From: an uncultured Acidobacteriota bacterium
GTDB lineage: Bacteria > Acidobacteriota > Terriglobia > Terriglobales > Acidobacteriaceae
NCBI GenBank assembly: GCA_963808795.1
Contig: CAWEGL010000001.1
Span: forward strand, 127,381-191,380
Length of the DNA stretch: 64,000 nucleotides
Direction of reading: 5' to 3'
Shown here: positions 3,046 through 61,486 of the stretch, piece after piece
How the letters are laid out: the number at the start of each line of letters is the position of its first letter
How positions within the stretch are numbered: position 1 is the first letter of the stretch
The notes under the pieces: model-generated
Database searches by the model: none
Seen by the model: the letters and a program-made list of their open reading frames with translations, nothing else
Told to the model about the DNA's origin: nothing
Made by a program: the position numbers and the translations under genes

Positions 3046-3801
3046 TTATCCGAACCTCGACTTCAAAAAGACTTCGGGGCTGTCGACGAGCAGTGGGCTT
3101 CGCGAGCGGAACGCCTCCGCGTACTGGACGTTTACAAGGCTGCCGACATACCGGTCCTCGGCGCTGTAACTGTCCGGCAGAGTGGACCGTTCGCCGCTGA
3201 AAACAGCGGCATAGGCACGAAGCGCCTCCAGTTTCCGATCATAAACGTCGCTCACATCGACAGCGAAGTCAAACCTGTCCCATGCGGGCTCCATTCTGCA
3301 GTGCCCGAAAAAGAGCCGCTCGATTTCGTGGGGCTCGGTACCATTCAAATAATCGCCGCCTGGAACATCGTTCCATTTTGGCAGTCTGGCATAGAAGACG
3401 CCGTTGACTACGATCCTTGTAACCGCTTCATGATCGGGATGCACGCCCGACCCCAGCGTGGTGAACACGATCCGGGGTCGGTACTCTCGTACGATGCGCG
3501 ATACCTGCAATCGCGCCTCTATCGAATCGACGATGAGTCTATCTCTGAGCGGGAGCGTGATCCGATCGACCCCCAATACCTCCGCGGCTTTTGTCGCTTG
3601 CTGGTGCCGTACGCCGCGTTCGGCATAGCGGGCCGGCTCCCCGTCGCACAAATCAACATACAATACTGAGCGCCCACTCCGAACCATTTTCACGCTGGTT
3701 CCACCCATGACCGCTTCGAGATCGTCGGGGTGCGCTCCGAAGGCAACGACGTCACACATTTTCGAACCATGTTCCTGGCCGGATGGAACTGAGGCGCTCA
3801 T
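3046..3801 (-). CDS. PIG-L family deacetylase (BshB1-like)
   Basis: AHPDD and HPDH metal-binding motifs; C-terminal YAEAF. Confidence 0.85.
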   Translation of the reverse strand: MSASVPSGQEHGSKMCDVVAFGAHPDDLEAVMGGTSVKMVRSGRSVLYVDLCDGEPARYAERGVRHQQATKAAEVLGVDRITLPLRDRLIVDSIEARLQVSRIVREYRPRIVFTTLGSGVHPDHEAVTRIVVNGVFYARLPKWNDVPGGDYLNGTEPHEIERLFFGHCRMEPAWDRFDFAVDVSDVYDRKLEALRAYAAVFSGERSTLPDSYSAEDRYVGSLVNVQYAEAFRSRSPLLVDSPEVFLKSRFG

Positions 3802-3854
3802 CGACTCCCTCCCGCAACGCGGTATCTGGACCTGTCATGCGCATTTCATCCAGG

Positions 3855-3985
3855 CAAAGGAACGAGACGCCTCCGTCTTCCGGAAAACTGCACCTCAGAC
3901 CGATGAGGAAATATCGTAGCGGATCAAGCAGGGTGATGCACTGCACCGCCTGTGGCATTTCTGCATTTGGCGTTGCGAAGCCGGA
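3855..3985 (-). pseudogene. Relic of an ABC-2 permease 3' region, homologous to about 51352..51485
   Basis: Reads MPQAVQCITLLDPLRYFLIGLRCSFPEDGG versus MPQAVQYITLLDPLRYFLIVLRGSFLEGGG in the intact gene; nucleotide similarity is visible by eye. Confidence 0.85.
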
Positions 3986-4225
3986 CGGAACACTCGCATC
4001 TCGAAGCGAGAGCGTCTTACCGGGCGCATGAGAGAAACAGCCCGTAAATCCGATGATCGCGGGCCGTTCGGGGATTTTTGCTTGATTCTGCTACCCTGAA
4101 TCCCTCAAGAACCCGAGGCTCCTGTGGCCCTTCCAACAAATCCAATCATCACCGTAGAAAAACAGTTCGCGATTCCTGAGGTTTACATCTGTTTTCAGAG
4201 GATCACGCCGGCTGTATACGGGGTC

Positions 4226-4241
4226 TGTGACGGCGATCACA
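4226..4241. promoter_or_regulatory. CRP-type binding site
   Basis: TGTGA-CGGCGA-TCACA, a perfect consensus. Confidence 0.75.
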
Positions 4242-4413
4242 TGCTTGGAGAGTCCGCGCCAGAAATCGTACTGGATTTGCAATCTCGCGCACTCTCTACA
4301 AAAAATGCCAAATACCGGTCAAGCACCTCCGTGAAACTCGCACACAACCCTGTGTGCTGCGAATGAATCCTCCGCCCGGTCCTAGGCTCTTTCGAGAATC
4401 GACCGAACCATGG

Positions 4414-4533
4414 TTTCCAGAGGCGGGGTAGCTGTTTGAATGGAGTACTTGCAATCGGGTGCGCCTTCGCCCTTCCCGCGAATCCCCAACCTTCTGTGCT
4501 TGCTTTACCATGCAGCTACCCCGCTTCTGGAAA
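4414..4533. repeat. 21-bp inverted repeat with a 78-bp spacer
   Basis: tttccagaggcggggtagctg (4414-4434) and cagctaccccgcttctggaaa (4513-4533), 1 mismatch. Confidence 0.9.
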
Positions 4534-4621
4534 TTTCTCTATTGACCGGCTGACGGACTCCTTGTAAAGATGAGCAACCGCCATTCGTCCCACCACGATC
4601 TCGCCAATGCCGCCAAGGGGG

Positions 4622-5107
4622 TCAGTTCTGTAACTCATGGAAAGCGGCCCGGTCCCAGGCTGGCGCGAATAAAGTCGCAGATAGATCGGTATCGCAATGA
4701 GGCAATGATCGTTTGGCGATGAACGCCTCGCCCAAAAATAGGTGAGCGTTGCCCTTCAAGTCGAGAAAGCCGACGCCGCTCTCCACGCACAGCGCCCGTG
4801 TCTCCGCCAGCAGAGAGGGCGCGATGAAGACAGGTGTCGCGCCTCCAGCAAAATGAGCAGCCTGGTTGCGCAACTTCAACAGAGTCGTACGGACATCCGT
4901 AGCCTGGCCGTCGGCTGCCACCTTACAAACAATCGTTTGGCAGTGACCCCACACGTCGATGTGCGCCATGACGTCGATGGCGTGGTCAACGGCCGGAGAT
5001 GCGCACCTGATTTCGAGCAATTTGATTGCGGAGATCTGTTCCATCAGTGCCTTGAGCGCGTCGGCCGCTCGGGCATTCAAATCTTTCCTTGCTATCGAAG
5101 TGGTCAT
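4622..5107 (-). CDS. Hypothetical protein resembling the N-terminal part of AbiEi-like (type IV TA antitoxin) proteins
   Basis: PVFIAPSL..ETRALC...GVGFLDLKGNAHLFL motif recognised from memory. Start placed at MTTSIARK after a purine-rich stretch. Confidence 0.45.
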   Translation of the reverse strand: MTTSIARKDLNARAADALKALMEQISAIKLLEIRCASPAVDHAIDVMAHIDVWGHCQTIVCKVAADGQATDVRTTLLKLRNQAAHFAGGATPVFIAPSLLAETRALCVESGVGFLDLKGNAHLFLGEAFIAKRSLPHCDTDLSATLFAPAWDRAAFHELQN

Positions 5108-5240
5108 TTCCGGGCTTCTCCCCCGTGCTCTAAGGTTGAAGTTGCTGGCGGTCATGGCGCTTCGTAACCAGCGGGCGAAGAGACATCGAGAACTGCGCGG
5201 CAGGCTTGACCCGTGGGCCGCGGAGCGTAAGAGGATACGG

Positions 5241-5954
5241 TTAAGCAGCAAGGCGTTCGAGTTGCTCGTGCCTGACGATAGTCAGGCACGAGCCGTGAAT
5301 GGTGATCCACTGGTTACGACGGAACTGGTTTAAGGAGCGCGTAACGGTTTCCCGCGATGTTCCGGTCATGTTGGCGATCTCTTCGTGCGTCAGCGCCATG
5401 GTGAAACGGATCTCGGATTTGCCGTCAGCCGCTGCGTGCCCCCATTCAAGCAAGAGACGCGCCAGCCTCCCTGCCGACGAGCCCGGCAGCGCCAGTCGCT
5501 GGGCATCGTGAAATGCAGTGAGGTACTCGGTGGAGAGCATCTGCGCCGCGTGCATGGAGGCGATACCGTGGCGGCCCAAGAACTCGATGAACTCACACTT
5601 GTGCATGATCTTGACTCGGCATGGCTCGATGGTCTCTGCGGTGGCTTCGTGCAAAACATTCTCGAGTATTGCGCTCAGGCCCAGCACCTCCCCGGGGCCG
5701 GCGATCTTCAAGATCATGGTTTTGCTATCGCGTGAGGTGGTAGAGATTTTCACCTGCCCGGAGCAAATCACGAAGACGTTCCGTACCGGGTCGCCCTCGG
5801 AAAACAGCTTGGCTCCGGGAGCCGGGCTCATCATGAATCCGATCTTTTCGTAATCGGTAAGCGTCGCCGCCGTGAAGTTGCAGAAGGTTAGTTGATGGCG
5901 AAACTCACAACTCAAACAGTCTTCCGGTGCGTGATGCAGGTAAAGCGAAGCCAT
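5241..5954 (-). CDS. Crp/Fnr family regulator with an N-terminal Cys cluster
   Basis: CLSC-x8-C at the N-terminus; cNMP-fold GPGEVLG; HTH EEIANMTGTSRETVTR. Confidence 0.92.
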   Translation of the reverse strand: MASLYLHHAPEDCLSCEFRHQLTFCNFTAATLTDYEKIGFMMSPAPGAKLFSEGDPVRNVFVICSGQVKISTTSRDSKTMILKIAGPGEVLGLSAILENVLHEATAETIEPCRVKIMHKCEFIEFLGRHGIASMHAAQMLSTEYLTAFHDAQRLALPGSSAGRLARLLLEWGHAAADGKSEIRFTMALTHEEIANMTGTSRETVTRSLNQFRRNQWITIHGSCLTIVRHEQLERLAA

Positions 5955-18461: not shown

Positions 18462-20036
18462 CTAAGACAGCTTTCGCGGGTCGATACCCAGCTTCTTCAT
18501 GCGCGTAATCAGGGTAGTGCGTTTTAGGCCCATGCGTGCGGCAGCGCCGTCGGCGCCGCCGACTCGTCCCTTGGTCTCTTTCAGGATGCGCACGATCCTG
18601 TCCCGCTCTTCGGACCTGCCGACTCTTGCGGGTGCAGCCTGCGCACCTCCATCGGCTAATTCCGGCACCGAGATCTCCAGTGTCTCCCCTCGCGAGAGAA
18701 CCACCGCGCGCTCGACCAGGTTCTCCAGCTCGCGAACGTTTCCCGGCCAATGCCAGCGCGCCAGCTTGCGCAGGGACGCAGCGGGAACACTTTCGATCTT
18801 CTTTTGCATAGGACGGGCATACTTCTGTGCAAAATACCGCACCAGCAATGGAATGTCTTCGGGGCGCTCGCGCAAGGGTGGAATGCGGATAGGAATCACA
18901 TTCAAGCGGTAGTAGAGGTCGCTTCGAAATTGTTTCTCTTCAACCATTTTTTGCAGGTCGCGATTGGTCGCGGCCACCAAACGAACATCGACCTTCTTCG
19001 TTCGTGTGCTGCCCAGGGGTTCGAATTCCCGTTCCTGCAAAGCGCGCATGAGTTTGGGCTGGACTTCCAGGGGTATGTCCCCCACCTCGTCCAGAAAAAG
19101 CGTGCCCCGATCCGCCAGTTCAAGCCGTCCGAACTTCTGTGCGACCGCTCCGGTGAAAGCGCCTCGCTCATGGCCGAACAATTCGCTCTCCAGCAAGCCT
19201 GCGGGAATCGCCGCGCAGTTGAGTTTAATCAAGGTCCGATCCTTGCGCCGGCTGCGATCGTGAATGGCGCGAGCGATCAGTTCCTTTCCGGTGCCTGTCT
19301 CTCCGAGCAGCAATACGGTTGAATCGCTTGCCGCCACGGTTTCGACCATCTGAAGCACTTGCCGGAGCGCCGAACTCTGCCCGACAATTCCTTCAAAGTC
19401 AGCCTCGCTGCGAATCTCTTCTTCGAGATAGAGTTTTTCCCGCGCGAGTTTGTCCTTCAGCTCTGCGATTTCGCGATAGGCCAGGGCATTCTCGATGGCG
19501 ATCGCTACTTGTCCTGCCGCTCGCATCAGGAACTCAACGTCCTCTGAGCTGGATGCGTTCTCGGCCCGCCAGCCAAGGCCCAAAACTCCAAGCGTCCGGT
19601 TGCGGCTTATCAGGGGCAGACAGCAGCCAGACGCGAGGCCCTCCGCGACGGCAAGGAGATGTTCGGGCTCACTCATCTCAGCGGCCTTGGTGGATACAAC
19701 GGGCCTGCCGGTCCTGAAAGCCTTGCCGACACCGGACCCTTCGACCCGCTGCAGCAAATCCTCCCTTGCGAATCCCTTGCCCTCCGGGAAGTCCATCGTC
19801 ACAGAGCGCAACTGGCGCTGCTCCGCATCCGGCAACCACACCGAAACGAGGTCGCTATGCATGCATTGCCGGATGCTCTCGGAAATCGCGCGAAGAAGAT
19901 CGCGAGGCTCGAGATTTGAAACCAGCGCATTGGTCAGCTCCAGGAGAAGCTGGAGCCGCTCGCTCTCGCGCTCGAAATCGCTCCCGGAAGGCGCGAACTT
20001 CTGGGATGCTTCACCAGACGGCAGCTTTGAGCCCAT
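18462..20036 (-). CDS. GAF-containing sigma54 enhancer-binding protein (FhlA-like)
   Basis: [29 protein letters not shown], Fis-type HTH; single GAF domain. Confidence 0.92.
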   Translation of the reverse strand: MGSKLPSGEASQKFAPSGSDFERESERLQLLLELTNALVSNLEPRDLLRAISESIRQCMHSDLVSVWLPDAEQRQLRSVTMDFPEGKGFAREDLLQRVEGSGVGKAFRTGRPVVSTKAAEMSEPEHLLAVAEGLASGCCLPLISRNRTLGVLGLGWRAENASSSEDVEFLMRAAGQVAIAIENALAYREIAELKDKLAREKLYLEEEIRSEADFEGIVGQSSALRQVLQMVETVAASDSTVLLLGETGTGKELIARAIHDRSRRKDRTLIKLNCAAIPAGLLESELFGHERGAFTGAVAQKFGRLELADRGTLFLDEVGDIPLEVQPKLMRALQEREFEPLGSTRTKKVDVRLVAATNRDLQKMVEEKQFRSDLYYRLNVIPIRIPPLRERPEDIPLLVRYFAQKYARPMQKKIESVPAASLRKLARWHWPGNVRELENLVERAVVLSRGETLEISVPELADGGAQAAPARVGRSEERDRIVRILKETKGRVGGADGAAARMGLKRTTLITRMKKLGIDPRKLS

Positions 20037-20334
20037 GCACGAAGCACCTCCGAGACAAGTGTCGCACAACGCCGACGATGGTCGGATTTGGTGTCGGGAC
20101 CGCCGACACGAGGCGGCCCTCGCGACCTTCCTCATGCCTCTTATCTTCCTTCTCTTCAGATGCTTATGCCCTGTCCACCCGCGGGAAGCTCTTCGGAATC
20201 CGAATTGCTTAATCCAAATCGGCCAGCAAATCCGGGTTGGCGGAAACGCGGTACGAAACAAGGCGTATCACGAGACCTGGTGGAGGCGGTCAGTTCGCAG
20301 TCGCGAATGGGACGTTGCGGCAAGGAAGTGGAAC

Positions 20335-46516: not shown

Positions 46517-47599
46517 ATGATTTCGGTCAGGAAGCGCATTTCGATTCTGGCAATTGTGATCCTTCTTGCTGCGGGTTTCTTCGTCTGGCGCAGGCTCCAG
46601 CAGAAGGGCGCGGCCAGCGACAGCATCACGCTTTATGGCAACGTCGACATCCGCCAGGTGCAAGTCGCCTTTAATGACAGTGAGCGCATCGACAAACTGC
46701 TGGTGGATGAAGGCAGCGCGGTGCACGCCGGGCAGTTGATTGGCCAGCTGGTTCAGCAGCGCATTTCCGATGCCGTCGCACAGGACCAAGCAGTCGTCGC
46801 TGCGCAACAGCAGGTGGTTGCAAGGCTGCGGGCTGGGAGCCGTCCGGAGGAAGTCGCAGAGGCGCGCGCCGATGTGGCTGCCGCGCAAGCGAACGTGGCC
46901 GCCGCTCAGGCCAATGTGAAGAATGCCGAGCTGCTTTACCACCGTCAGCAAACCCTGGCGAAACAGCAATACGTCTCCCTGCAAATTCGCGACGATGCCG
47001 AACGCGCGTATCTGGCCCAGCAGGCCGACCTGACAGCCAGGCAACAGATACTGGCTGCCCAACAGCAGGCCTTGCAACTCGCCGTCATCGGCCCTCGCAA
47101 AGAGGACATCGCCGCAGCGGAAGCCACACTCCAGGCAGATATCGCAGCGTTAGCTCTGGCGCAAAAGCAGCTGGCCGATACGCAGCTCTATGCTCCTTCA
47201 GAAGGTGTCATTCAGAATCGAATTCTGGAGCCGGGCGATATGGCCACTCCACAAACGCCGGTGTTTACGCTGGCCCTCGACAATCCTCTCTGGGTGCGTG
47301 CCTACCTGCCCGAACCGCAGATGGGCAAGGTGGCTCTTGGCATGCGTGCGTGGATCGAGTCGGACAGCTTCCCCGGCCAGCGTTTTCCTGGATGGATCGG
47401 CTTCATCTCTCCGGTATCGGAGTTTACGCCAAAGAACGTCGAGACCACGGAGCTGCGCTCGCAGCTTGTCTATCGCGTGCGCGTCTATGCCTGCAACCCC
47501 GACCATCGCCTGCGTCTGGGCATGCCGGCAACGGTCATCATCCCGCTTAGCAACAATCCTGCCCACGGAATCGATGCCCATCCTTGCGAGGGAAAGTGA
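46517..47599 (+). CDS. HlyD-family adaptor (YbhG-like)
   Basis: TLYGNVDIR, SEFTPKNVET..LR..LVYRVR. Confidence 0.9.
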   Translation: MISVRKRISILAIVILLAAGFFVWRRLQQKGAASDSITLYGNVDIRQVQVAFNDSERIDKLLVDEGSAVHAGQLIGQLVQQRISDAVAQDQAVVAAQQQVVARLRAGSRPEEVAEARADVAAAQANVAAAQANVKNAELLYHRQQTLAKQQYVSLQIRDDAERAYLAQQADLTARQQILAAQQQALQLAVIGPRKEDIAAAEATLQADIAALALAQKQLADTQLYAPSEGVIQNRILEPGDMATPQTPVFTLALDNPLWVRAYLPEPQMGKVALGMRAWIESDSFPGQRFPGWIGFISPVSEFTPKNVETTELRSQLVYRVRVYACNPDHRLRLGMPATVIIPLSNNPAHGIDAHPCEGK

Positions 47600-47600
47600 G

Positions 47601-49334
47601 ATGGGGGCCGTCGTCGTAAGCAATCTGCGCAAGTCCTTCGGTAAAGGAGCGGGGCGCACAGAGGCGCTCAGGAATATCTCCTTCGAGATTTCGCAGGGGA
47701 GCATGACGGCGCTGATCGGTCCGGACGGTGCGGGGAAGACCACGCTGCTGCGGCTGCTGGCCGGCATCCTGGAGCCCAACTCCGGCGATCTTCGCGTACT
47801 CGGGCACGCGTTGCCGCGCGAGGTGCTGCAACTGCAGGCCAGGATCGGCTATATGCCGCAGCGCTTCGGGCTCTATGAAAGCCTCACGGTCGAAGAGAAT
47901 CTCGTGCTGTTCGCTGACCTGCACAACGTGCCGCAAGACGCGCGCGCGGCCCGCTTCGATGAGTTGCTCACTATGACGGCGCTCGGGCCCTTTCGCACGC
48001 GCCGCGCAGGGCAGTTATCCGGCGGCATGAAACAGAAACTCGGCCTCGCCTGTACCTTGATCCACCCTCCCGAACTGTTGCTCCTGGATGAAGCCAGCGT
48101 AGGCGTAGACCCCATTTCGCGGCGGGAACTGTGGAGCATCATCCAGCAGCAGGTCGTCGGCCAGCAGGTGACTGTTCTGCTGAGTACGGCTTATATGGAT
48201 GAAGCCGAGCGCTGCGATCACGTCATCCTCTTACACGAGGGGGAGATTCTCGCACAGGGGAGTCCCTCGCAACTCATCGCGCCCATGGAGGGCCACTCCT
48301 TCCTTCTGGAGGAAATCTCCACTGGCCCGCGCAATCTTCAGTCTCAGATCGCCCGGTTGCCGGGTGTGGTCGATACGGCGATCCAGGGTGACGGACTGCG
48401 CATCGTGATGGAAAAGGTTGAAGCGCCACCCTTACCCGCGAGTCTGGCTGTCCACGGTCTCTTGAAGCCGGTTGCGGCCCGGCTGGAAGATGCGTTCGTC
48501 AGTCTGCTCTTCAAGCGAACTTCGCATCATTCCATCCCGCTGCCTCCGCACCGGAATTCGGCAGGCGATGATGCCGCCGTTGTCGAGGTCAAGGGTCTTT
48601 CCCGTTATTTCGGCGCCTTCGCTGCGGTGAAGGATGTCAGTTTCTCTGTGCGCAGAGGAGAGATATTTGGGCTGCTCGGAGCCAACGGCGCCGGAAAGTC
48701 CACAACGTTCCGGATGCTCTGCGGCCTGCTTCCAGCCTCATCGGGAACGCTGAGGGTCGCAGGCGCAGATCTACGCACGGGTGCCGCGGCAGCGCGGGCA
48801 CGCATTGGATATGTGTCGCAGAAGTTCTCTCTTTATGGGGCTTTAAGTGTCCAGCAGAATCTGACTTTCTTCGCCAATGTCTATGGCCTTGAGAACCGCC
48901 GCAAAGGAGACCGAATCGCGTGGGCGCTCGATGAACTCGAACTGAAAGAATACATCGCCATGAACGCCGCGGAGTTGCCCCTGGGATACAAACAGCGCCT
49001 TGCGCTGGCCTGCGCGTTGATGCATGAGCCGAGCATTCTCTTTCTCGATGAGCCGACCTCCGGCGTCGATCCCTTGGCGCGCCGTGAATTCTGGGCGCGC
49101 GTGAATGCACTCGCGGAGGGTGGGACAACCTGTCTGGTGACCACTCACTTCATGGAAGAGGCGGAATACTGCGACCGTTTGGTCCTGATGTCACTGGGAG
49201 AAGTGCTTGCAGAAGGAACGCCCGCAGAGATCAAGACAAGGGTCCGCAGTGCAGACTATCCCAAACCGAGCATGGAAGATGCCTTCATCTCTCTGATTGA
49301 GGAACATGAGCGCGTGAGCCGGAGGGCCTCATGA
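47601..49334 (+). CDS. Dual-ATPase ABC subunit (YbhF-like)
   Basis: GPDGAGKT/LSGGMKQ and GANGAGKS/LPLGYKQ. Confidence 0.93.
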   Translation: MGAVVVSNLRKSFGKGAGRTEALRNISFEISQGSMTALIGPDGAGKTTLLRLLAGILEPNSGDLRVLGHALPREVLQLQARIGYMPQRFGLYESLTVEENLVLFADLHNVPQDARAARFDELLTMTALGPFRTRRAGQLSGGMKQKLGLACTLIHPPELLLLDEASVGVDPISRRELWSIIQQQVVGQQVTVLLSTAYMDEAERCDHVILLHEGEILAQGSPSQLIAPMEGHSFLLEEISTGPRNLQSQIARLPGVVDTAIQGDGLRIVMEKVEAPPLPASLAVHGLLKPVAARLEDAFVSLLFKRTSHHSIPLPPHRNSAGDDAAVVEVKGLSRYFGAFAAVKDVSFSVRRGEIFGLLGANGAGKSTTFRMLCGLLPASSGTLRVAGADLRTGAAAARARIGYVSQKFSLYGALSVQQNLTFFANVYGLENRRKGDRIAWALDELELKEYIAMNAAELPLGYKQRLALACALMHEPSILFLDEPTSGVDPLARREFWARVNALAEGGTTCLVTTHFMEEAEYCDRLVLMSLGEVLAEGTPAEIKTRVRSADYPKPSMEDAFISLIEEHERVSRRAS

Positions 49335-50446
49335 ACTGGATGCGTATAAAGGGTTTGATGCGGAAGGAGGTCTATGAAATACTCCGCGATCCTTCCAGCA
49401 TCGCCATTGCGTTCGTGCTGCCCCTGGTGCTTCTGTTGATCTTCGGGTACGGCGTCTCACTCGACGCTCGAAGTATCTCCATTGCGGAGGTTGTTGACCA
49501 GCCAACGCATCTCACAGCATCTTTCCTCGCGGAGTTGCAACGCAATCAGTGGTTTCACCCGATCCTCTATCCGGATCAGGCATCTGCGGAGCAGGCATTG
49601 TTGCATGGCCGAGCCGAAGCCATTCTTTGGCTGCGCAGCGATTTTTCCCAGATCGCCTTGAGTAGCGGGAGCGCTCCGATTCATCTTACCGTGAACGGCG
49701 TCGATGCCAATCAGGCTCGCATCATTCAGAACTACATCAGTGGAACATGGCAAGTTTGGCTTCAGCAGGAGGCGACAGCACAGGGTGGGCATCTCGCAGC
49801 GCCCGTGGTAGCGGATACGCGAGTGTGGTTCAACCCTGCGCTCGCCAGCCGTGACTATCTGATTCCCGGACTGATCGCCATCATCATGACGCTCATCGGA
49901 GGGTTGTTGACAGCACTGGTTGTAGCCAGAGAGTGGGAGCGCGGCACGATGGAAGGCATTATGGTTACGCCCGTCGCCAAAACAGAAATTCTGCTGGGAA
50001 AGCTGGTCCCATATTTTGTCATGGGGATGGGCGGAATGATGATGTCCACTGCGATGGCGGTCTTCCTGTTTCATGTGCCGCTGCGTGGCTCGTTCGCGGT
50101 GCTCTTTGGTACTGCCGCACTCTTCCTGCTCACCGCCCTGGGCATGGGATTGGCGATCTCCGTCCTGGCGCGCAGCCAGTTCGTCGCCGCCATGGTGGCC
50201 ATTGTTACCACGTTCCTTCCTGCGTTCATTCTGTCGGGATTCCTGTTCGACATTCGTTCCATGCCGCAAGTCATTCAGGTTCTGACCCACATCGTGGCAG
50301 CCCGCTACTTCGTGACCATGCTGCAAACTACCTTTCTGGCGGGCGACATGTGGTCCGTCCTTTTGCCCAATGCGCTGGGATTGGCCATCCTCTGTGTGCT
50401 CTTTCTGGGCCTCTCCGTATTGCGGTTTCGTAAGAGGTTGGACTGA
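49331..50446 (+). CDS. ABC-2 permease (YbhS-like)
   Basis: AREWERGTME..VTP; LSGFLF..MP. Confidence 0.92.
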   Translation: MNWMRIKGLMRKEVYEILRDPSSIAIAFVLPLVLLLIFGYGVSLDARSISIAEVVDQPTHLTASFLAELQRNQWFHPILYPDQASAEQALLHGRAEAILWLRSDFSQIALSSGSAPIHLTVNGVDANQARIIQNYISGTWQVWLQQEATAQGGHLAAPVVADTRVWFNPALASRDYLIPGLIAIIMTLIGGLLTALVVAREWERGTMEGIMVTPVAKTEILLGKLVPYFVMGMGGMMMSTAMAVFLFHVPLRGSFAVLFGTAALFLLTALGMGLAISVLARSQFVAAMVAIVTTFLPAFILSGFLFDIRSMPQVIQVLTHIVAARYFVTMLQTTFLAGDMWSVLLPNALGLAILCVLFLGLSVLRFRKRLD

Positions 50447-51564
50447 TGCGGGCGATTCTCCAACGCGTATTCGCGCTCGCCGTTAAGGAGCTTCTGGCAC
50501 TGTTGCGCGATCCGGCAAGCCGAGCCGTCCTGATCGGCCCGCCGATCATTCAACTGTTGGTTTTTGGCTATGCGGCAACATTCGATCTCACACATGTTCC
50601 CTTTGTTGTCTACAACCAGGACCAGGGACAAGCCTCGCGCGAGCTCATCGCTCGTTTTGCCGGCGCGCCCAGCTTCGATCTGCTGCGCCCGGTTCACAAT
50701 CAAAAGGAGCTGGAGCAGGCCATTGACGACCAGTCTGCGCTCATGGCCATGGACATTGGCCCCAACTTTAGTGCCGATCTGGAACGAGGACAAACTGCGC
50801 ACATCCAACTCATTCTGGACGGCAGAGACTCGAATACGGCCGCACTTGCAATGGGCTACGCGCAATCCATCGTAGCCCGGTTCAATGAAGCGGAAATCGT
50901 GCAGCACGGAATGAAACCACCTCCAGCGGTACTTCTGGATCGCGCATGGTTCAATCCAAATCTCGACTCACGCTGGTTTATTGTCCCCGGCATCTGCGGC
51001 ATCCTCACTCTGCTGGTAAGTATGCTGACGACGGGGCTTTCGGTGGCGCGCGAGCGTGAGATGGGGACCTTTGACCAGCTTCTCGTAACCCCAATGCCTC
51101 CGACGGAGATTCTGGTAGGGAAAACTCTGCCCGGCTTTCTGGTTGGTACGGCCGAAGGCTCTCTCATCATTTTCATGGCGATATTTTGGTTTCACGTTCC
51201 ATTCACCGGAAGCCTCTTGGGTCTCTACATCGGTTTGCTCTGCTTCTTGGTTTCAACGTTGGGCATAGGATTGATGTTCTCGTCTTTAGCTGTCACACAG
51301 CAGCAAGGGCTGTTAGGCGTCTTTCTCTTCCTGGTGCCGGCCATTGTTCTCTCCGGTTTCGCAACTCCGATTGCCAATATGCCACAAGCAGTGCAGTACA
51401 TCACGCTCCTTGATCCGCTGCGATATTTCCTGATCGTTCTGCGTGGCAGCTTTCTGGAAGGCGGGGGGGCATCCCTGTTCTGGCCGCAATATTGGCCATT
51501 GCTCGTGATTGGACTGGCCAGCATGACCGTGGCTGCCAGCCTTTTCCGCCGTCGGCTTTCCTGA
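50446..51564 (+). CDS. ABC-2 permease (YbhR-like)
   Basis: AREREMGTFDQLLVTP; LSGFATPIANMP. Confidence 0.92.
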   Translation: MRAILQRVFALAVKELLALLRDPASRAVLIGPPIIQLLVFGYAATFDLTHVPFVVYNQDQGQASRELIARFAGAPSFDLLRPVHNQKELEQAIDDQSALMAMDIGPNFSADLERGQTAHIQLILDGRDSNTAALAMGYAQSIVARFNEAEIVQHGMKPPPAVLLDRAWFNPNLDSRWFIVPGICGILTLLVSMLTTGLSVAREREMGTFDQLLVTPMPPTEILVGKTLPGFLVGTAEGSLIIFMAIFWFHVPFTGSLLGLYIGLLCFLVSTLGIGLMFSSLAVTQQQGLLGVFLFLVPAIVLSGFATPIANMPQAVQYITLLDPLRYFLIVLRGSFLEGGGASLFWPQYWPLLVIGLASMTVAASLFRRRLS

Positions 51565-55566: not shown

Positions 55567-55851
55567 CGAAAGTGCTTCCTTTCGCAGACCCCCCGGTGGG
55601 CAAAGTCTGCTACTCGTAGTCTGGGGATGACTTTGCTATTCCTGTATCGATCCTAGCAACTCATCGTCACAGCCACCCACACGACAAGCGCAGAATCCCT
55701 TCAGGTACTGAACTGCGCCAAGCCGTTGCTTCGGCTGGATCCGGGCGAGCAGCCGGACCCAATCAGGATTCAGGTCTGAGTCGCTGCCGCGGACCGGCAA
55801 GGATTTGCCTGGAATCCGGAACCGTGCTCTGATTCCCCAAGCGAGGCCGCT

Positions 55852-56103
55852 ATGCCCCTCAAGCTGATTCGAGCCACAGAACTCGCGGAATTCGTCTATT
55901 GCTCGCGCGCATGGGAGCTGAAGTACCTCCGAGGTGTTGAGCCGTCACGCGAAGCCCGGCAACTTCAGATCGAAGGAAACGCCTGGCACGCCGCTCAAGG
56001 GCAGGTGCTCGCCCGCATCGACAGCCTTCGCTGGGCGGCTTACGCCGCTCTGGCGCTTGCAGCGCTTCTCTTCGCATTCTCCTGGCTGGGGTGGGCGCGA
56101 TGA
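55852..56103 (+). CDS. Cas4 N-terminal fragment with a C-terminal TM helix
   Basis: IRATELAEFVYCSRAW (first Fe-S Cys), GNAWH, then a hydrophobic helix. Confidence 0.75.
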   Translation: MPLKLIRATELAEFVYCSRAWELKYLRGVEPSREARQLQIEGNAWHAAQGQVLARIDSLRWAAYAALALAALLFAFSWLGWAR

Positions 56104-56630
56104 CTCTTTCCGTCATGGCGGCAACCCTCGCCGTTCTCGCGCTCGTGCTCTTCCTGCTGGCGGCGCAGTCGAGGAAACGAATCGGAATCCCCGCCGGTGC
56201 GCTCTTCTATCAGGATCTGCCCGGACAACCGTTTTATGGAAAGCCGCTGCGTTCGCACACCCTCGGCATTTCCGGAAAGCCCGATTGCCTGATCCGCACC
56301 GCCGAGGGCATTGTCCCCGTCGAATTGAAGAACGCGAGCAAGCCTCCAGCCCGCGGAGAGGTCTATCCAAGCCACATTATCCAGGCTGTGGCGTACTGCG
56401 CCCTGGTCGAGGATCAGATGAAGATCTCCGCACGCTACGCCCTGGTGATCTATGCCGGCCACCAGGTGCGCAGGGTAGAGTTTACCGACCAGCGCCGGCG
56501 GTGGCTTCTCGACACGATCCGACAGGTCCAAGTCGCGCGTGAGCGCAACACCGCGAATCGCAACCACGATCACCGGGCGCGGTGCGCCTGCTGTGGCGTC
56601 CGTTCACACTGCGATCAGGCGCTTCCGTGA
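56100..56630 (+). CDS. cas4: Cas4-like PD-(D/E)xK nuclease with an N-terminal TM helix
   Basis: GKPDCL, PVELK, QAVAY, C-x2-C-x5-C (CACCGVRSHC); ATGA overlap. Confidence 0.85.
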   Translation: MTLSVMAATLAVLALVLFLLAAQSRKRIGIPAGALFYQDLPGQPFYGKPLRSHTLGISGKPDCLIRTAEGIVPVELKNASKPPARGEVYPSHIIQAVAYCALVEDQMKISARYALVIYAGHQVRRVEFTDQRRRWLLDTIRQVQVARERNTANRNHDHRARCACCGVRSHCDQALP

Positions 56631-56644
56631 TAGCCTCTTGTGTC

Positions 56645-57307
56645 CTAAAGGTATTCGCCTCGCTCGAAGGCCTCCTGTTCCCGTTTGGCCTCGCGTGAAC
56701 GTATGAGGTCTGCGTGCTTCGGCGCAAAGATGCACTCTTCAAGAAAGAGCATTCTGCAGGGAGAAGAGCGTCGCGTGATAATCAGGTCCGGGTGCTTCTT
56801 GCAGAACCTGTGAAGCTCGTCGATTTCGATGACGTAGCTCGCGCTGCCCGACTTGAATTCATGCCGCTTCGCCTTCAGTAGTCCCTGCTCAACCCATTCT
56901 CGAACCCGGCTGTACCTCATTCGCAGATGCGCAGAGACCTGGTGCAGACTCATCGTGTCCTTGCCCATTTTAGTATGTTCCTGCCGGTAAAGAAGGTTGT
57001 AGAGGCTCTTCGCGCCGTATCCGAACCGGCGCGCAGCCGCCTGGACGCCGTGGTCGGAGATGTACTCGATCAATTTGTCGCTCTTGTCGCGATCAAATCT
57101 GTGCCTGGTCGCAGAGCCGGGACGCTGGATACCGTGCCTGGTCATGAACCTCCAACACGCGCCCTTGTTTTTCCCGGTTAGGGCAGCCAGCTCTTCGCAA
57201 ATGGCTACCGGGTGTTTGTTTTGGCGCACGATCTCAATCGCTTCTGGCGGACATCGCCGCCAAGTCCGGCGTTTGGGAGCGGAATCGATAGGGGAAGAAG
57301 AAGGCAT
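56645..57307 (-). CDS. Multi-HTH DNA-binding protein with an excisionase/MerR-like segment
   Basis: SLHQVSAHL..RYSRVREWVEQGLLKA; a second HTH GVQAAARRFGYGAKSLY. Confidence 0.55.
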   Translation of the reverse strand: MPSSSPIDSAPKRRTWRRCPPEAIEIVRQNKHPVAICEELAALTGKNKGACWRFMTRHGIQRPGSATRHRFDRDKSDKLIEYISDHGVQAAARRFGYGAKSLYNLLYRQEHTKMGKDTMSLHQVSAHLRMRYSRVREWVEQGLLKAKRHEFKSGSASYVIEIDELHRFCKKHPDLIITRRSSPCRMLFLEECIFAPKHADLIRSREAKREQEAFERGEYL

Positions 57308-57705
57308 ACCTCACCTCTGTCTCCATATACACACGAGTGGGCGAAAAGGAAGAGAGGGATAGCACTTTTTCTCTGACGTTCTATTCCAACCTGGTACAGG
57401 CAGAGAAGACTGCAATAAAACTCGCTATGTGGAAAATTGGCCCTCTATATCTATAAGGCATTCTGTTAACGCCTTTTGTTCACTTGTAACGAAATTTTCA
57501 CAATTCCCCCTTGACCCGCTGCCCACTTCATGTCAGTCGCGCATCGTCTCTCGCTTACTCATGGGGCCAGTCTTCCGCGTCAACCTGCATCTTCGAAGGA
57601 GACTCCGGAATCTCCGCAATCACGTTACAATCGACACATCGGCGTTGCGGCGTTAGCCCGTTTCTCCGCTGCGCCCCAAAGATTTGCTAGCGATGCAGAG
57701 CCCCC

Positions 57706-58284
57706 ATGGATCCGGAGCCTCCCCTCTCTGCCCGCGATTACTGGTACCTGGGCTCGCCTGATCCGGCGATCGATCTGCTGTTTCGGCGAGCGTGCGTCCT
57801 CGCGTGGCCATACGCGGTTTATTGCGCGAAGCGCTATCACAACGATCCCGATTTCGCCTACGATTTGATGGATGAAGCGGTCCGGAAGGCCGAGCATTAC
57901 TATGAGCGCTTCAACGGCCAGCGTACCGCCATTCAGCTTTCCTACCGCATTTTCCGCGCCATCAAGCGAGTATCGAAGCAATACACCAACAGAAATGAAG
58001 TGGCGGTCGGCTCGCTTTCGGACCTTGAGTTTTTGGCGCAAAGTTTTGAGGCCAGGACCGACTTCGAGCAGGACGCGTACATTCGGCAGGTTCTCGATCG
58101 CATGACCGATCGAACGCGCCAAGTCGTCCTCTGGCACCAAGCCGGCCACAGCTGGCCGCAAATTGCGAAGGTACTTGGCGTAAACCGCATCACTCTATGG
58201 CGGGAGGTTCAGAAGGAAGTCCGTGGACTCCTCCAGCTCCGGTCTGATACCCATGATCTGGACGAAAGAGGCGAGAGCGATTAA
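57706..58284 (+). CDS. Divergent ECF-type sigma factor
   Basis: Region 2-like AYDLMDEA; region 4 VLDRM..RTRQVV..AGHSWPQIAKVLGVNR. Confidence 0.7.
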   Translation: MDPEPPLSARDYWYLGSPDPAIDLLFRRACVLAWPYAVYCAKRYHNDPDFAYDLMDEAVRKAEHYYERFNGQRTAIQLSYRIFRAIKRVSKQYTNRNEVAVGSLSDLEFLAQSFEARTDFEQDAYIRQVLDRMTDRTRQVVLWHQAGHSWPQIAKVLGVNRITLWREVQKEVRGLLQLRSDTHDLDERGESD

Positions 58285-58993
58285 AGAACAAGTCAATCCC
58301 GAACAGTGGTTTGTTGAACAACTGCGCGCCTATACGCAGAGGCAGCCGAGGGGAGAAAGAACGCCGGAGTGCCCGGACGATTCCTTCCTTCACGCCTATG
58401 CGGCCAGGCCTGGTTCCGTCTCCCTTTTGGATCCGCGAGTCCGGCACGTGACGTCGTGTAATCACTGTCTGCCGCGGCTTCTTGAGCTTCGCTCGACAGA
58501 AGGCGCCCATCGTCCCGCGTTTACCCGTGCGGCAGCGATTGCGGCTTTGTGCGCCGTCTGCCTGGTTGCCGGCTTTCTCGGAGCCAGATACTGGAATCGT
58601 CAGCATGCACGGCCGATTGCGAATCAGGCAGCCAACTCGCAACCAGCCGCCGCTGTTATCGACAGGACCCTGGACCTGACCAACTATGGAACTTATCGAG
58701 GCCTCGGCTCCCATCCTTCACAACCTCCGCTCAACCTGCCGGCCACTCTCTTGCACCTGAATCTGATCCTTCCGCGATTCAGCCAGCCGGGTGCATACAC
58801 GATCATGGTCGCCGGCGATCGAGATGGCAACGGCCGCATGGCCTGCACGACCGGAATCGCAACGACGGCCGGCAATCAAACCAAGCTGACAGTAACGCTG
58901 GACTTGCGCGGCGCGAAACCAGGCGCCTACTTCCTTCTGACCGAACTCAGCGGAGAACAGAACTTCTACTCCTATCAGTTGAACATCCAGTAG
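58253..58993 (+). CDS. Anti-sigma-like protein: ZAS motif, TM helix, exported beta domain
   Basis: CPDD.FL..YA...HVTSCNHC; TM AAAIAALCAVCLVAGFLG; overlaps the sigma gene. Confidence 0.72.
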   Translation: MIWTKEARAIKEQVNPEQWFVEQLRAYTQRQPRGERTPECPDDSFLHAYAARPGSVSLLDPRVRHVTSCNHCLPRLLELRSTEGAHRPAFTRAAAIAALCAVCLVAGFLGARYWNRQHARPIANQAANSQPAAAVIDRTLDLTNYGTYRGLGSHPSQPPLNLPATLLHLNLILPRFSQPGAYTIMVAGDRDGNGRMACTTGIATTAGNQTKLTVTLDLRGAKPGAYFLLTELSGEQNFYSYQLNIQ

Positions 58994-59040: not shown

Positions 59041-59874
59041 TCACGCATCCGCTCTGCCTTCGTGCAGTGGTGCAGCGCGGTCGAAGTCTTCGACCAGACC
59101 CGACCAGTATTCAAGACGCCTCTGGCAGCGCGAGCAGATCGCCAGGTGCTTTGCTCGTTCGGTCAGGAAGAGCTTGCGGACATCAAACGCAAACGCGCGG
59201 ATCTCGTCATCCGTGTAACATGCAAAATCCACCTCCTGAAATGGAGATCGAGCCGACGCAGCCGCCAACAGCTCCGCTTTCCGCCTGGCCACCATGTCCT
59301 CGAAGTGAATCCGCCGGCTCGGCGCCTTCACCCAAAGCGTATCGTCCTGCGCCCAAAGGTCTTCGAGCAGGGCGCTGGCATTGAGAGCGAGGTAGCGGAC
59401 GGCATCGTCTCTTCCTCCGAACGCCTTCCCCTGGTCTGCAAGCGCGGCACACGCAATCTTCGCAAGCCCGACGATCTCCTCGTCGGCGAACGATCGGGCA
59501 AGCTCGCGAAAATCTCTGATTTCTTCCCGCGCGATTTCCGCAAATTCCGAATCTCGACGTGCGACCACTGCTACATCGGAGGTCAGCGCCGGCAGTTCAA
59601 TCATCGTTCCGGGAGCCGCCTCCCACGCCGGATGGTTGGAGGTGTACATGCCGGGATCGAAGATTTCGAGCAGCGAATCCTTGCGGTCCTCCGGACCGCG
59701 AAAGCGGTTCAGCAGGTCGAGAAACCAGATCAACTGCGATGGACTGAACTCCCGGGAAGCAGCCCCCGCGGCGTCTTCCCGCCAGGTGTCGAAACTTTCC
59801 ATCAGCGAGCTCGGCACTTGAAATCGATTCAGTTCTTTGATCATTTCCTGAATGTCCGTGGTTGGATTCTGCAT
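59041..59874 (-). CDS. Hypothetical soluble protein with a C-terminal ZAS-like motif
   Basis: CYTDDEIRAFA...KHLAICSRC. Confidence 0.6.
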   Translation of the reverse strand: MQNPTTDIQEMIKELNRFQVPSSLMESFDTWREDAAGAASREFSPSQLIWFLDLLNRFRGPEDRKDSLLEIFDPGMYTSNHPAWEAAPGTMIELPALTSDVAVVARRDSEFAEIAREEIRDFRELARSFADEEIVGLAKIACAALADQGKAFGGRDDAVRYLALNASALLEDLWAQDDTLWVKAPSRRIHFEDMVARRKAELLAAASARSPFQEVDFACYTDDEIRAFAFDVRKLFLTERAKHLAICSRCQRRLEYWSGLVEDFDRAAPLHEGRADA

Positions 59875-59923: not shown

Positions 59924-61486
59924 TCAAATGGCCCTGGAACCGAGCCGATCCCCCTCCCGGAAGCTCCTCAAATTACGGCGCTTGCCGCGAAACTCAATCA
60001 GACAGCTTCCCCGCATCCCAACCTGCGGAGCAAGATCCCAGCACAGGGCTTCGAGGCTAAACCTCCCTTGTCTGATCCGTACCCACCGATTCTTCAAGTT
60101 GACGATCTCGATCGCACGCAGCAGGAATATGGGGGCAGGGTTTCCTTCGCCGAACGGCTCGAGCAGCGCGAGCTGTTCATCGAAGTGTTTGCCCGCCGTC
60201 ACCAGCACCAGTTCCGCGTCCTCACGGATCTGATGGTTGCGATCCAAATTGAGACTGCCAACGAAGGAGGTCAATTCTCTGGCGAATGCTTCAATCTGGC
60301 CGATAGGCATAGTCAGTCCGACAGCCTGGGCATGGCCGCCGAACCGTTTGAAGAATCCACGGAACAGTTCAAGCGCGTCCGCCAGATCGAAACCAGCCAC
60401 GCTCCTGCCCGATCCGACCACGAGACCCGGTTCCGGCGACGGCGCCAGCACAATGCTTGGCACCCGGAAGCGTTCGACGCACTTGGCGGCGAGCAGCCCG
60501 GCGATGCCTTTGGGACAGGACTCCCGGTAAAGCACGAGAGCGGATGGGGCCGGCTGCGGAATCTCCGCGCACAGACCACCAAAATGGGCTGCCACGAGCT
60601 GGCGCCGCTGCTGGTTGAGCTGATCCAGTCCCTCGACGCTCCTGCGTGCGGAGTCCTCGTCTCTTGCCGCCTCGAAGACCGACAGCGCGCGTGCCGGATG
60701 GTCGATCCGCCCGGCAGCATTGATGCGCGGCGCGACTCCGAATGCCAGGTCGTTCGAATCGGGGCTCGCCGGGTCGGCACAAGAAACCCGCAGTAGCTCT
60801 CGAAGGCCACAATTCTCGGCGTGACCGAGTTCGCGCATTCCCAATCGTGCCAGGGTCCGAGTCCCGTGGAGCAGCGGAACACAATCGGCAATCGAAGCGA
60901 TTGCAGCATACTGGCTTACCGCCGACCGCAGACCCTCGACTCGCTTGTCCTTCCAGCCGGCTCGACGAGCTAAAGCAATTGCGAACAGGGCTGCAAGGCC
61001 CGCGCCGCAGAACTCCTGCGACCAAACAGCGATTGTCTTCGCCTGTTCCTGAATGCGGTGATGGTCGATGACGATCACATCTACACCCAGCCGCTGCGCG
61101 AGCATAATCTCTCGCTGCGCGTTGATGCCGTTGTCGACTGTGATCAGCAGGTCGGTGCCGCTCAGGGAGAATTTGTGGACCTCCCACGAGCTGAGACCAT
61201 ATCCCTCGTCTCTGTGCGGCAGATACGCCCGCGCCTGAACGCCGAGGCTGGCCAGAACCGAACGCAAAATGTGAGTTCCGAGGATCCCATCGCAGTCATA
61301 GTCCCCGAAGACCGTGATTCGCTGCTTCTCCCGGACTGCCGAAAGGACGCGATCGACAGCCTGCGTCATCCCAGGAATCGATTCCGGATCGGGAAGATCA
61401 TTCCAGGACGGGGGTTGAATGAAGGAATCAATGTCCTCGATCCCGCGGGCGATGAGGACGTCGAGCAGTGGCTGACACAGAAACAT
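59924..61486 (-). CDS. recJ: RecJ-like DHH ssDNA exonuclease
   Basis: GDYDCDG, ITVDNG, IDHH, PRINAAGR, GSGRS, FGGH. Confidence 0.92.
   Translation of the reverse strand: MFLCQPLLDVLIARGIEDIDSFIQPPSWNDLPDPESIPGMTQAVDRVLSAVREKQRITVFGDYDCDGILGTHILRSVLASLGVQARAYLPHRDEGYGLSSWEVHKFSLSGTDLLITVDNGINAQREIMLAQRLGVDVIVIDHHRIQEQAKTIAVWSQEFCGAGLAALFAIALARRAGWKDKRVEGLRSAVSQYAAIASIADCVPLLHGTRTLARLGMRELGHAENCGLRELLRVSCADPASPDSNDLAFGVAPRINAAGRIDHPARALSVFEAARDEDSARRSVEGLDQLNQQRRQLVAAHFGGLCAEIPQPAPSALVLYRESCPKGIAGLLAAKCVERFRVPSIVLAPSPEPGLVVGSGRSVAGFDLADALELFRGFFKRFGGHAQAVGLTMPIGQIEAFARELTSFVGSLNLDRNHQIREDAELVLVTAGKHFDEQLALLEPFGEGNPAPIFLLRAIEIVNLKNRWVRIRQGRFSLEALCWDLAPQVGMRGSCLIEFRGKRRNLRSFREGDRLGSRAI

Follow-up and report, generated by a model that had tools for sequence, protein, structure and literature searches.

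A split solo Cas4 with a predicted two-helix membrane hairpin in Acidobacteriota

A 64,000-nucleotide stretch of an uncultured member of the Acidobacteriaceae (GenBank assembly GCA_963808795.1, contig CAWEGL010000001.1, positions 127,381 to 191,380), hereafter the window, carries two short open reading frames (ORFs), ORF1 and ORF2, that together encode a Cas4-family enzyme and lie outside any CRISPR adaptation locus. The features of Cas4 are divided between the two proteins. The first iron-sulfur (Fe-S) cysteine lies on ORF1 and the remaining three on ORF2, and the break between the genes falls between two predicted transmembrane (TM) helices, TM1 at the end of ORF1 and TM2 at the start of ORF2 (Table 1). 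The original prediction for this DNA, made from its letters, had placed a YCSR cysteine on an 83-residue protein ending in a TM helix, followed by a protein that begins with one, and these statements and their coordinates proved exact. It had also assigned the nuclease motifs and the last three cysteines to ORF2, which holds for D62, the ExK and QxxxY motifs, and the cysteine triad; it does not hold for the nuclease motifs as a whole, since His46 lies on ORF1.

Table 1. Features of the two-gene Cas4 locus and of other genes in the window (positions in the window; aa, amino acids).
Feature	Position	Strand	Remarks
ORF1 ("Cas4N")	55852-56103	+	83 aa; N-terminal helices predicted cytoplasmic, then TM1
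ORF1 Cys17	55900-55902	+	First Fe-S ligand by homology; in F-V-Y-C17-S-R-A-W (YCSR)
ORF1 His46	55987-55989	+	Invariant among homologues
ORF1 TM1, residues 62-80	56035-56091	+	Predicted from hydropathy; 3-residue outside tail follows
ORF2 ("Cas4C")	56100 (ATG) to 56630 (stop)	+	176 aa; TM2 and RecB/Cas4 core
ORF2 TM2, residues 3-22	56106-56165	+	Predicted N-out; followed by RSRKR stop-transfer
ORF2 D62	56283-56285	+	RecB/Cas4 core motif, in G-K-P-D62
ORF2 E75-x-K77	56322-56330	+	RecB/Cas4 core motif, in V-P-V-E75-L-K77
ORF2 Q95-x3-Y99	56382-56396	+	RecB/Cas4 core motif
ORF2 C162-x2-C165-x5-C171	56583-56612	+	Fe-S ligands by homology
ATGA overlap	56100-56103	+	ORF2 ATG on ORF1 TGA; suggests translational coupling
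Promoter-like and ribosome-binding region	55804-55846	+	For the two-gene operon; pattern conserved in relatives; presumed function
Helix-turn-helix (HTH) protein	56645-57307	-	220 aa, convergent neighbor; weak MerR/HTH_17-type motif, residues 119-168, below Pfam cut-off
Extracytoplasmic function (ECF)-type sigma factor	57706-58284	+	192 aa, divergent neighbor; TIGR02937 sigma70-ECF 35.5 bits (below 42.9 cut-off); Sigma70_r4_2
Probable anti-sigma-like protein	58223-58993	+	Up to 256 aa, start uncertain; one hydrophobic stretch; no family match
Protein without family match	59041-59874	-	277 aa
RecJ-family single-stranded DNA exonuclease	59924-61486	-	TIGR00644 338 bits, below 397 cut-off
ORF with mad3, AriA, and mad8 matches (PADLOC)	47190-49331	+	714 aa
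Two ORFs following the 714-aa ORF	49331-50446, 50446-51564		About 371 aa each
Sigma-54 activator-like AAA+ protein	18462-20258	-	PADLOC RtcR_PspF2 340 bits

Both segments stay hydrophobic among homologues. Kyte-Doolittle means over 19 residues are 1.87 for TM1 and 2.71 for TM2, compared to 2.42 across 101 ORF1 homologues and 2.59 across 120 ORF2 homologues. A G-rich GGGGTGGG stretch lies 5 to 12 nucleotides (nt) upstream of the ATGA overlap, within the codons of a conserved WLGWAR motif. The same DNA covering both ORFs is present in two independent assemblies (L003 and L004). An extra cysteine, C164 (CACC; 56589 to 56591), sits inside the cluster motif of ORF2, where the family consensus reads C-A-G-C.

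Upstream of ORF1, TTTGCC (55804 to 55809), an 18-nt spacer, and TCTGAT (55828 to 55833) are followed by GAGG (55843 to 55846), 5 nt before the ATG. The pattern TTTGC-N18-19-TCT(G/C)AT and then AGCGAGG is kept 5' of ORF1 in most acidobacterial loci of group 1, one of the two paralogue groups, and looks like a sigma-70 promoter. A generic consensus scan for promoters and terminators gave no match at the locus, and an ECF-type promoter (GGAAC...CGT) was considered and rejected, the GGAAC at 55818 not being conserved in relatives. Transcripts of related loci may be represented in soil metatranscriptomes: contigs from three soil or rhizosphere libraries, about 90 to 98% identical, cover ORF1 of close relatives of locus L016 (L016 4754 to 5005), and all of them start no more than 6 nt from the ORF1 start codon, at a low depth at which DNA carry-over is possible. 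The sequence of the window itself was not found in any RNA run searched.

The pair is a Cas4-family enzyme by its motifs, profile scores, and fold. ORF2 alone scores 36.0 bits on Pfam Cas_Cas4 (PF01930), above the cut-off of 22.7, and eleven Cas4-type PADLOC models match it, the only other PADLOC matches being weak ones to DruK. On TIGR00372 cas4 (cut-off 65), ORF2 alone reaches 62.8 bits and the concatenation of ORF1 and ORF2 reaches 72.1; residues 8 to 255 of this concatenation span PDDEXK_1 end to end (model positions 4 to 247 of 247). ORF1 alone matches, weakly, the first 45 to 50 positions of the cas4, Cas4g/Cas1g, PDDEXK_1, and phage exonuclease models. Sequence profiles match the solved Cas4 structures 4R5Q, 8D3L, 7MI4, and 4IC1, and a profile of ORF1 only found no Cas4 among PDB sequences. 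Among 22 diverse relatives, D62 never varies, and E75, K77, Q95, and Y99 vary little or not at all; all five are invariant in an alignment of 43 real ORF1/ORF2 pairs, as are C17, W21, and H46 of ORF1. The four cluster cysteines, C17 on ORF1 and C162, C165, and C171 on ORF2, are invariant in all relatives compared.

His46 deserves separate attention. In SSO0001, a Cas4 protein, Mn2+ is held by His62 together with an Asp and a Glu (PMC12501428). His46 aligns in sequence with the His of "EGQHLH" in the type I-C Cas4 8D3L, and it is probably a metal ligand, as a candidate equivalent of the N-terminal His of Cas4. Because it is both invariant and aligned with that residue, ORF1 probably gives the enzyme a catalytic metal ligand as well as a cluster ligand. 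With ligands coming from both chains, an obligate heterodimer would be the most economical reading.

The concatenated chains were modeled with an alignment that includes natural fused relatives. The model shows a single Cas4 domain and a helical hairpin (mean predicted local distance difference test score [pLDDT], 94.9; predicted template modeling score [pTM], 0.90), with short helices at the N terminus, the long hairpin itself (residues 33 to 78 and 83 to 111), and an alpha/beta core. In a Foldseek search against the PDB, the top match is chain I of 8D3L, the type I-C Cas4 (E value, 9e-7; TM-score on target, 0.65), followed by 7MI5 and 7MI4 (the Cas4 part of a Geobacter Cas4-Cas1 fusion) and then by Dna2 and MGME1. 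The single Cas4 domain of the joined chain, together with the existence of natural fused homologues, leads us to predict that the two proteins assemble into a heterodimer.

Is the split conserved? With the joined sequence as query, more than 120 clusters of ORF2 homologues were retrieved; almost all have lengths of 171 to 182 residues and identities of 60 to 100%, and the ORF1 portion is covered by none. A search with ORF1 returned about 100 homologue clusters, 55 to 100% identical and mostly stand-alone proteins of 78 to 94 residues. The split and both TM helices, whose survey the original prediction had proposed, are kept in homologues. Ratios of nonsynonymous to synonymous substitution rates (dN/dS) against group 1 loci are 0.09 to 0.19 for ORF1 and, where dS could be estimated, 0.05 to 0.09 for ORF2, with dS above 1 and saturated in both cases; ORF1 gives 0.35 against the paralogue in locus L022. 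A genome scan, which used a narrow alignment and reached Acidobacteriota only, placed the locus in Acidobacteriaceae/Terriglobales, with relatives including Terracidiphilus, Granulicella, and the isolate Edaphobacter aggregans DSM 19364. With one exception (L006, which has an earlier TAG), the intact acidobacterial pairs share the 4-nt ATGA overlap, those of paralogue group 2 and that of E. aggregans DSM 19364 among them. ORF1 variants that diverge after residue 42 occur in one lineage (proteins P0214 to P0220), and ORF2 is frameshifted or truncated in four loci that are clear pseudogenes (L020, L026, L027, and L024, the last on Tunturiibacter gelidiferens plasmid NZ_CP132940.1).

An exhaustive search of cluster representatives returned 1051 proteins at E values up to 0.001, and the best 150 were classified. 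Split-type proteins of about 165 to 185 residues, with an N-terminal TM helix and without the N-terminal Cys motif, account for 89 of these 150; another 17 are single chains in which the Cys motif is followed by inserted TM helices, bringing the membrane-anchored total to 106, and 1 is a classic soluble Cas4. The original prediction had named close homologues that are single chains lacking TM helices as a ground for rejecting it, and these counts show otherwise. In the single-chain relatives (243 to 559 residues), the N-terminal motif precedes TM helices that number 2, 4, or 8 wherever they could be counted. Proteins in which the inserted membrane segment is enlarged to 4 or 8 TM helices include P0337 and P0369 (557 to 559 residues) and P0371, P0372, P0374, and P0388 (330 to 363 residues). 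The window itself holds two ORFs in different frames instead of a single chain and belongs to the split form of the same clade.

Split pairs of this kind are found in distant lineages. Locus L028, from an unclassified bacterium, encodes proteins of 80 and 171 residues with an ATGA overlap; L029, from the Anaerolineae, is likewise split, its ORF1 having been left uncalled by annotators, and so is L030 from a Methanotrichaceae archaeon. In L035, ORF1 lies 0.9 kb upstream of ORF2 with another gene intervening. Among 80 metagenome loci of one distant clade, ORF1 is upstream of ORF2 in 56 (adjacent in 37 and separated in 19), and none is fused. The adjacent pairs overlap as ATGA, GTGA, or TTGA in 15 of 37 cases, and the others are spaced, with all three relative frames in use; overall, the junctions of distant relatives comprise spacers of 0 to 36 nt or whole genes of about 650 to 1700 nt between ORF1 and ORF2. 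A rough neighbor-joining tree, too crude to order the states, suggests at least 9 changes between fused and split forms. A large bacterial and archaeal clade is predicted to hold Cas4 at the membrane, most of its members being encoded by two genes cut in the hairpin loop.

Three observations bear on the topology of the pair. The positive cluster RSRKR after TM2 fits the positive-inside rule, inspection of the sequence revealed no Sec- or Tat-type N-terminal region before the hydrophobic core of ORF2, and the even TM numbers in fused relatives fit a placement of both soluble ends on the same side of the membrane. We infer from them that both soluble parts are cytoplasmic, with only 3 to 5 residues outside.

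How would such a pair work? We favor, with a probability of about 0.7, an obligate two-subunit nuclease of the Cas4 family (RecB-like PD-(D/E)XK, Fe-S) that is tethered to the inner membrane on its cytoplasmic side. The ancestral architecture would have been a two-TM hairpin placed between the "Cys + His" N-terminal helices of Cas4 and the nuclease core, although the rough tree cannot order fused and split forms, and the gene would have been cut within the short outside loop of this hairpin, here as in most relatives. ORF1 would supply Cys17 as the first Fe-S ligand, His46 as a probable metal ligand, and TM1, and ORF2 would bring the core with its D...ExK...QxxxY motifs, preceded by TM2 and followed by the CxxCx5C triad. 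Translation of the two genes may be coupled through the ATGA overlap, TM1 and TM2 would pair in the membrane, and the Fe-S cluster would staple the N-terminal helix of ORF1 onto the C terminus of ORF2. Since the active site would be composite, either chain alone should not be fully active. By homology, the assembled enzyme should cut single-stranded DNA or DNA ends as Cas4 enzymes do, and our best guess is that, at the membrane, it processes single strands or the ends of DNA, in repair or in the handling of incoming DNA.

The genomic context places this enzyme apart from CRISPR adaptation. No CRISPR-like repeats and no Rfam match were found in the window, and a PADLOC scan of its 59 ORFs of at least 150 residues found no cas1; a Cas2 of about 100 residues would escape a scan of that length range. 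Cas4 models match one of the 59 ORFs, and the Cas1g and Cas1b (Cas4-Cas1 fusion) hits are taken to come from the Cas4 part of ORF2, as ORF2 itself matches these models with near-identical E values. No cas genes appear in 10 other loci with called genes listed by Pfam family. The locus is a solo Cas4, which agrees, within the range of ORF lengths scanned, with the claim of the original prediction that no CRISPR system is present.

Around ORF1 and ORF2, the window encodes an amino-acid permease, the HTH protein, the sigma/anti-sigma pair, and RecJ. An HTH homologue is found directly downstream of the pair in 18 of 23 acidobacterial loci, spanning both paralogue groups, and the positions of the ECF-type sigma gene and the anti-sigma-like gene are also conserved in both groups. 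The latter gene is read as an anti-sigma factor from its hydrophobic stretch, AAIAALCAVCLVAGFLG, and from its position after the sigma gene. Together with ORF1 and ORF2, these genes form a five-gene block (55852 to 58993 in the window) in most acidobacterial loci, and the upstream flank is not conserved. One Terriglobales genome (CAVPBA010000002.1) carries two complete modules 3.6 Mb apart (L008 and L022), with identities between them of 43% for ORF1, 52% for ORF2, 37% for the HTH protein, 25% for the sigma factor, and 33% for the anti-sigma-like protein; this second, diverged copy argues for a functional five-gene unit. In Terriglobia, the nuclease may work, or be controlled, alongside the HTH protein and the ECF sigma/anti-sigma pair. 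The RecJ gene and the gene for the 277-residue protein follow the module in several relatives, including L021 of group 2, which may be plain synteny. Searches of PDB sequences with the HTH protein and the 277-residue protein gave nothing useful.

Other lineages have other neighbors. In the distant clade, 29 loci carry a DUF3467 gene and a translin-like gene, with overlapping ends, directly upstream of ORF1 (for example, L028 [3368 to 5516], L035, L036, L039, and L043); in L028, a gene for a single-stranded DNA-binding protein (SSB) is also present. A gene of about 210 residues with a weak HEAT-repeat match occurs in 17 loci of the distant clade, and it lies between ORF1 and ORF2 wherever both are seen. 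Examples of this HEAT-like gene are L048 (353 to 985) and L050 (2336 to 2968), as well as L058, L084, L085, L093, L096, and L097, with a remnant in L054.

Elsewhere in the window, PADLOC matches to defense-like models outside Cas4 are limited to sigma-54 activator-like ORFs and the 714-residue ORF. The AAA+ protein listed in Table 1 is accompanied by a second window ORF that matches the same models. The 714-residue ORF was considered as the sign of a defense island by Cas4 and rejected, all three of its matches coming from one ORF and being read as of a generic ATPase type; we suspect that its system is an ATP-binding cassette (ABC) transporter rather than a defense system.

What do these surroundings say about function? 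The family is chromosomal, the window locus lies in no defense island, neighbors vary between lineages, and a tblastn search with ORF2 came up empty in phage records and yielded a single weak plasmid match. A role on conjugation- or phage-injected DNA, which the original prediction had raised as a possibility, is not supported on these grounds. The locus data are compatible with a membrane-located enzyme that processes DNA or single strands and make no choice between repair, control of incoming DNA, and defense. A bolder reading would see in the pair a stand-alone surveillance nuclease at the inner membrane face, cutting DNA that enters by phage injection, conjugation, or transformation, and forming in Terriglobia a five-gene system in which it is wired to an HTH protein and to an envelope sensor made of the ECF sigma/anti-sigma pair. 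We regard it as unlikely. If true, it would define a new class of Cas4-derived membrane DNA defense or uptake control and would explain at least one large solo-Cas4 group.

Several points temper the case for an obligate heterodimer at the membrane. No partner is conserved across all lineages in a way that points to a role. The TM helices and their topology are assigned from hydropathy and charge, not from a dedicated predictor. When the chains were modeled in permuted order, ORF2 before ORF1, with an alignment without ORF1 homologues, the model was weaker, with a pTM of 0.73 and a pLDDT below 50 at the N terminus of ORF1. Furthermore, ORF1 is broken beside an intact ORF2 in three loci of paralogue group 2 (L019, L023, and L025) and broken or missing beside an intact ORF2 in L031 and L034, and 9 of the 80 metagenome loci have no ORF1 within 2.2 kb of ORF2 (9 of 67 evaluable; 13 not judgeable). 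Either ORF2 may function without ORF1 in some lineages, or those genomes may have ORF1 at another site.

The same loci speak for taking ORF2 as a functional, TM-anchored nuclease by itself, with ORF1 as an accessory or dispensable small membrane protein such as a regulator or stabilizer. ORF2 does pass the Pfam Cas4 cut-off on its own, and a mutant of a Methanosarcina solo-Cas4 without its Fe-S cluster is still catalytically active (PMC13621843). However, ORF1 is under purifying selection with C17 and H46 invariant, and its segment is the N terminus of the enzyme in single-chain relatives. The concatenation also fills PDDEXK_1 over its whole length and lifts the cas4 score past its cut-off, and the ORF1 genes that seem to be missing may be present at other sites in the genome. 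We consider an ORF2 that needs no partner quite unlikely.

The hydrophobic segments could also be understood in other ways: that of ORF2 as a cleavable signal peptide of an exported nuclease, or both helices as an oligomerization element of a soluble protein. Hydropathy being the only basis of their TM status leaves some room for either idea, and both appear very improbable. Export fits poorly with the absence of a positive N-terminal region or a twin-arginine motif before the core of ORF2, RSRKR coming only after it, and Sec would not be expected to export an Fe-S enzyme. As for a soluble oligomer, fused relatives carry 2, 4, or 8 hydrophobic helices, and 19-residue mean hydropathies of 2.4 to 2.6 across the families are typical of TM segments.

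A programmed -1 ribosomal frameshift would yield one fused polypeptide and make the split only apparent. In the window and in most acidobacterial loci, ORF2 is indeed in frame -1 with respect to ORF1, but the GGGTGGGCGCGATGA junction has no slippery heptamer, and the junctions of distant relatives, which occur in all three frames or are separated by whole genes, mean that frameshifting cannot be the general mechanism; the chance that it operates at this locus seems slight indeed. Decay of a frameshifted single-chain gene, or an assembly error, is excluded by the conservation data: single-chain relatives and clear pseudogenes do exist, but the same two-gene structure recurs in independent assemblies and in an isolate genome, each half stands as a separate gene in more than 100 clusters under purifying selection (dN/dS of 0.05 to 0.19, with saturated dS), and the TM helices, the start codon, and the ATGA overlap are all conserved, so that the split is a conserved design, as the original prediction had argued.

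The two-subunit membrane nuclease that we favor would matter beyond this locus. [quoted passage not shown] The pair would be a natural split Fe-S nuclease whose assembly could depend on the cluster and on pairing of TM helices. Its partners in different lineages are testable leads, namely, the HTH protein and ECF sigma/anti-sigma pair in Terriglobia, and SSB, DUF3467, and translin-like proteins in the other clade, and the cultured carrier E. aggregans DSM 19364 makes experiments possible. Annotation pipelines name ORF2 a "CRISPR-associated exonuclease Cas4" and either list ORF1 as a "hypothetical protein" or leave it uncalled, so the architecture is invisible in databases.

Compared to known systems, the pair is closest in sequence and fold to CRISPR-associated Cas4 (SSO0001, 4IC1; Pcal_0546, 4R5Q; 8D3L; 7MI4), with which it shares the D/ExK/QxxxY core, the 1+3 cysteines, an N-terminal His that aligns in sequence, the hidden Markov model matches, and the overall fold. 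Unlike these proteins, it is made of two polypeptides with a predicted TM helix on each side of the break, no cas1 or array was found in the window, and its nearest relatives are a membrane-anchored set, with 1 classic soluble Cas4 among the best 150 of 1051. The Fe-S nuclease domains of AddB, RecB-family proteins, Dna2, and MGME1 have the same PD-(D/E)XK fold, and in AddB and Dna2 the Fe-S cluster staples the N- and C-terminal parts of the nuclease domain together. In contrast to them, the locus lacks a helicase or other domains, and its product is much smaller, split, and, by prediction, anchored in the membrane. Membrane-associated defense systems such as the Shedu variants with N-terminal TM helices and the Kiwa membrane complex offer a lead, as they also hold a nuclease or effector at the membrane, an arrangement that would suit the sensing or cutting of DNA on its way in, and no sequence relationship between them and the locus was found.

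The nearest parallel in genomic setting is solo-Cas4, the Cas4 homologues outside CRISPR-cas loci, since the pair too is a stand-alone chromosomal Cas4-family locus. Solo-Cas4 of Methanosarcina mazei is a metal-dependent DNA-cutting enzyme with a bound [4Fe-4S] cluster, and it is described as a soluble single chain of about 31 kDa that forms a large oligomer, the word "membrane" being absent from the text (PMC12501428). The locus in the window, in contrast, is split and predicted to be membrane anchored. In the family survey of Hudaiberdiev et al. (2017), the words "transmembrane" and "split" do not occur (PMC5704561). No published description of a membrane-anchored or split Cas4 was found in the literature searched, in which paywalled work may have been missed. 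Overall, the pair differs from every described Cas4 by its membrane anchoring and its encoding in two genes.

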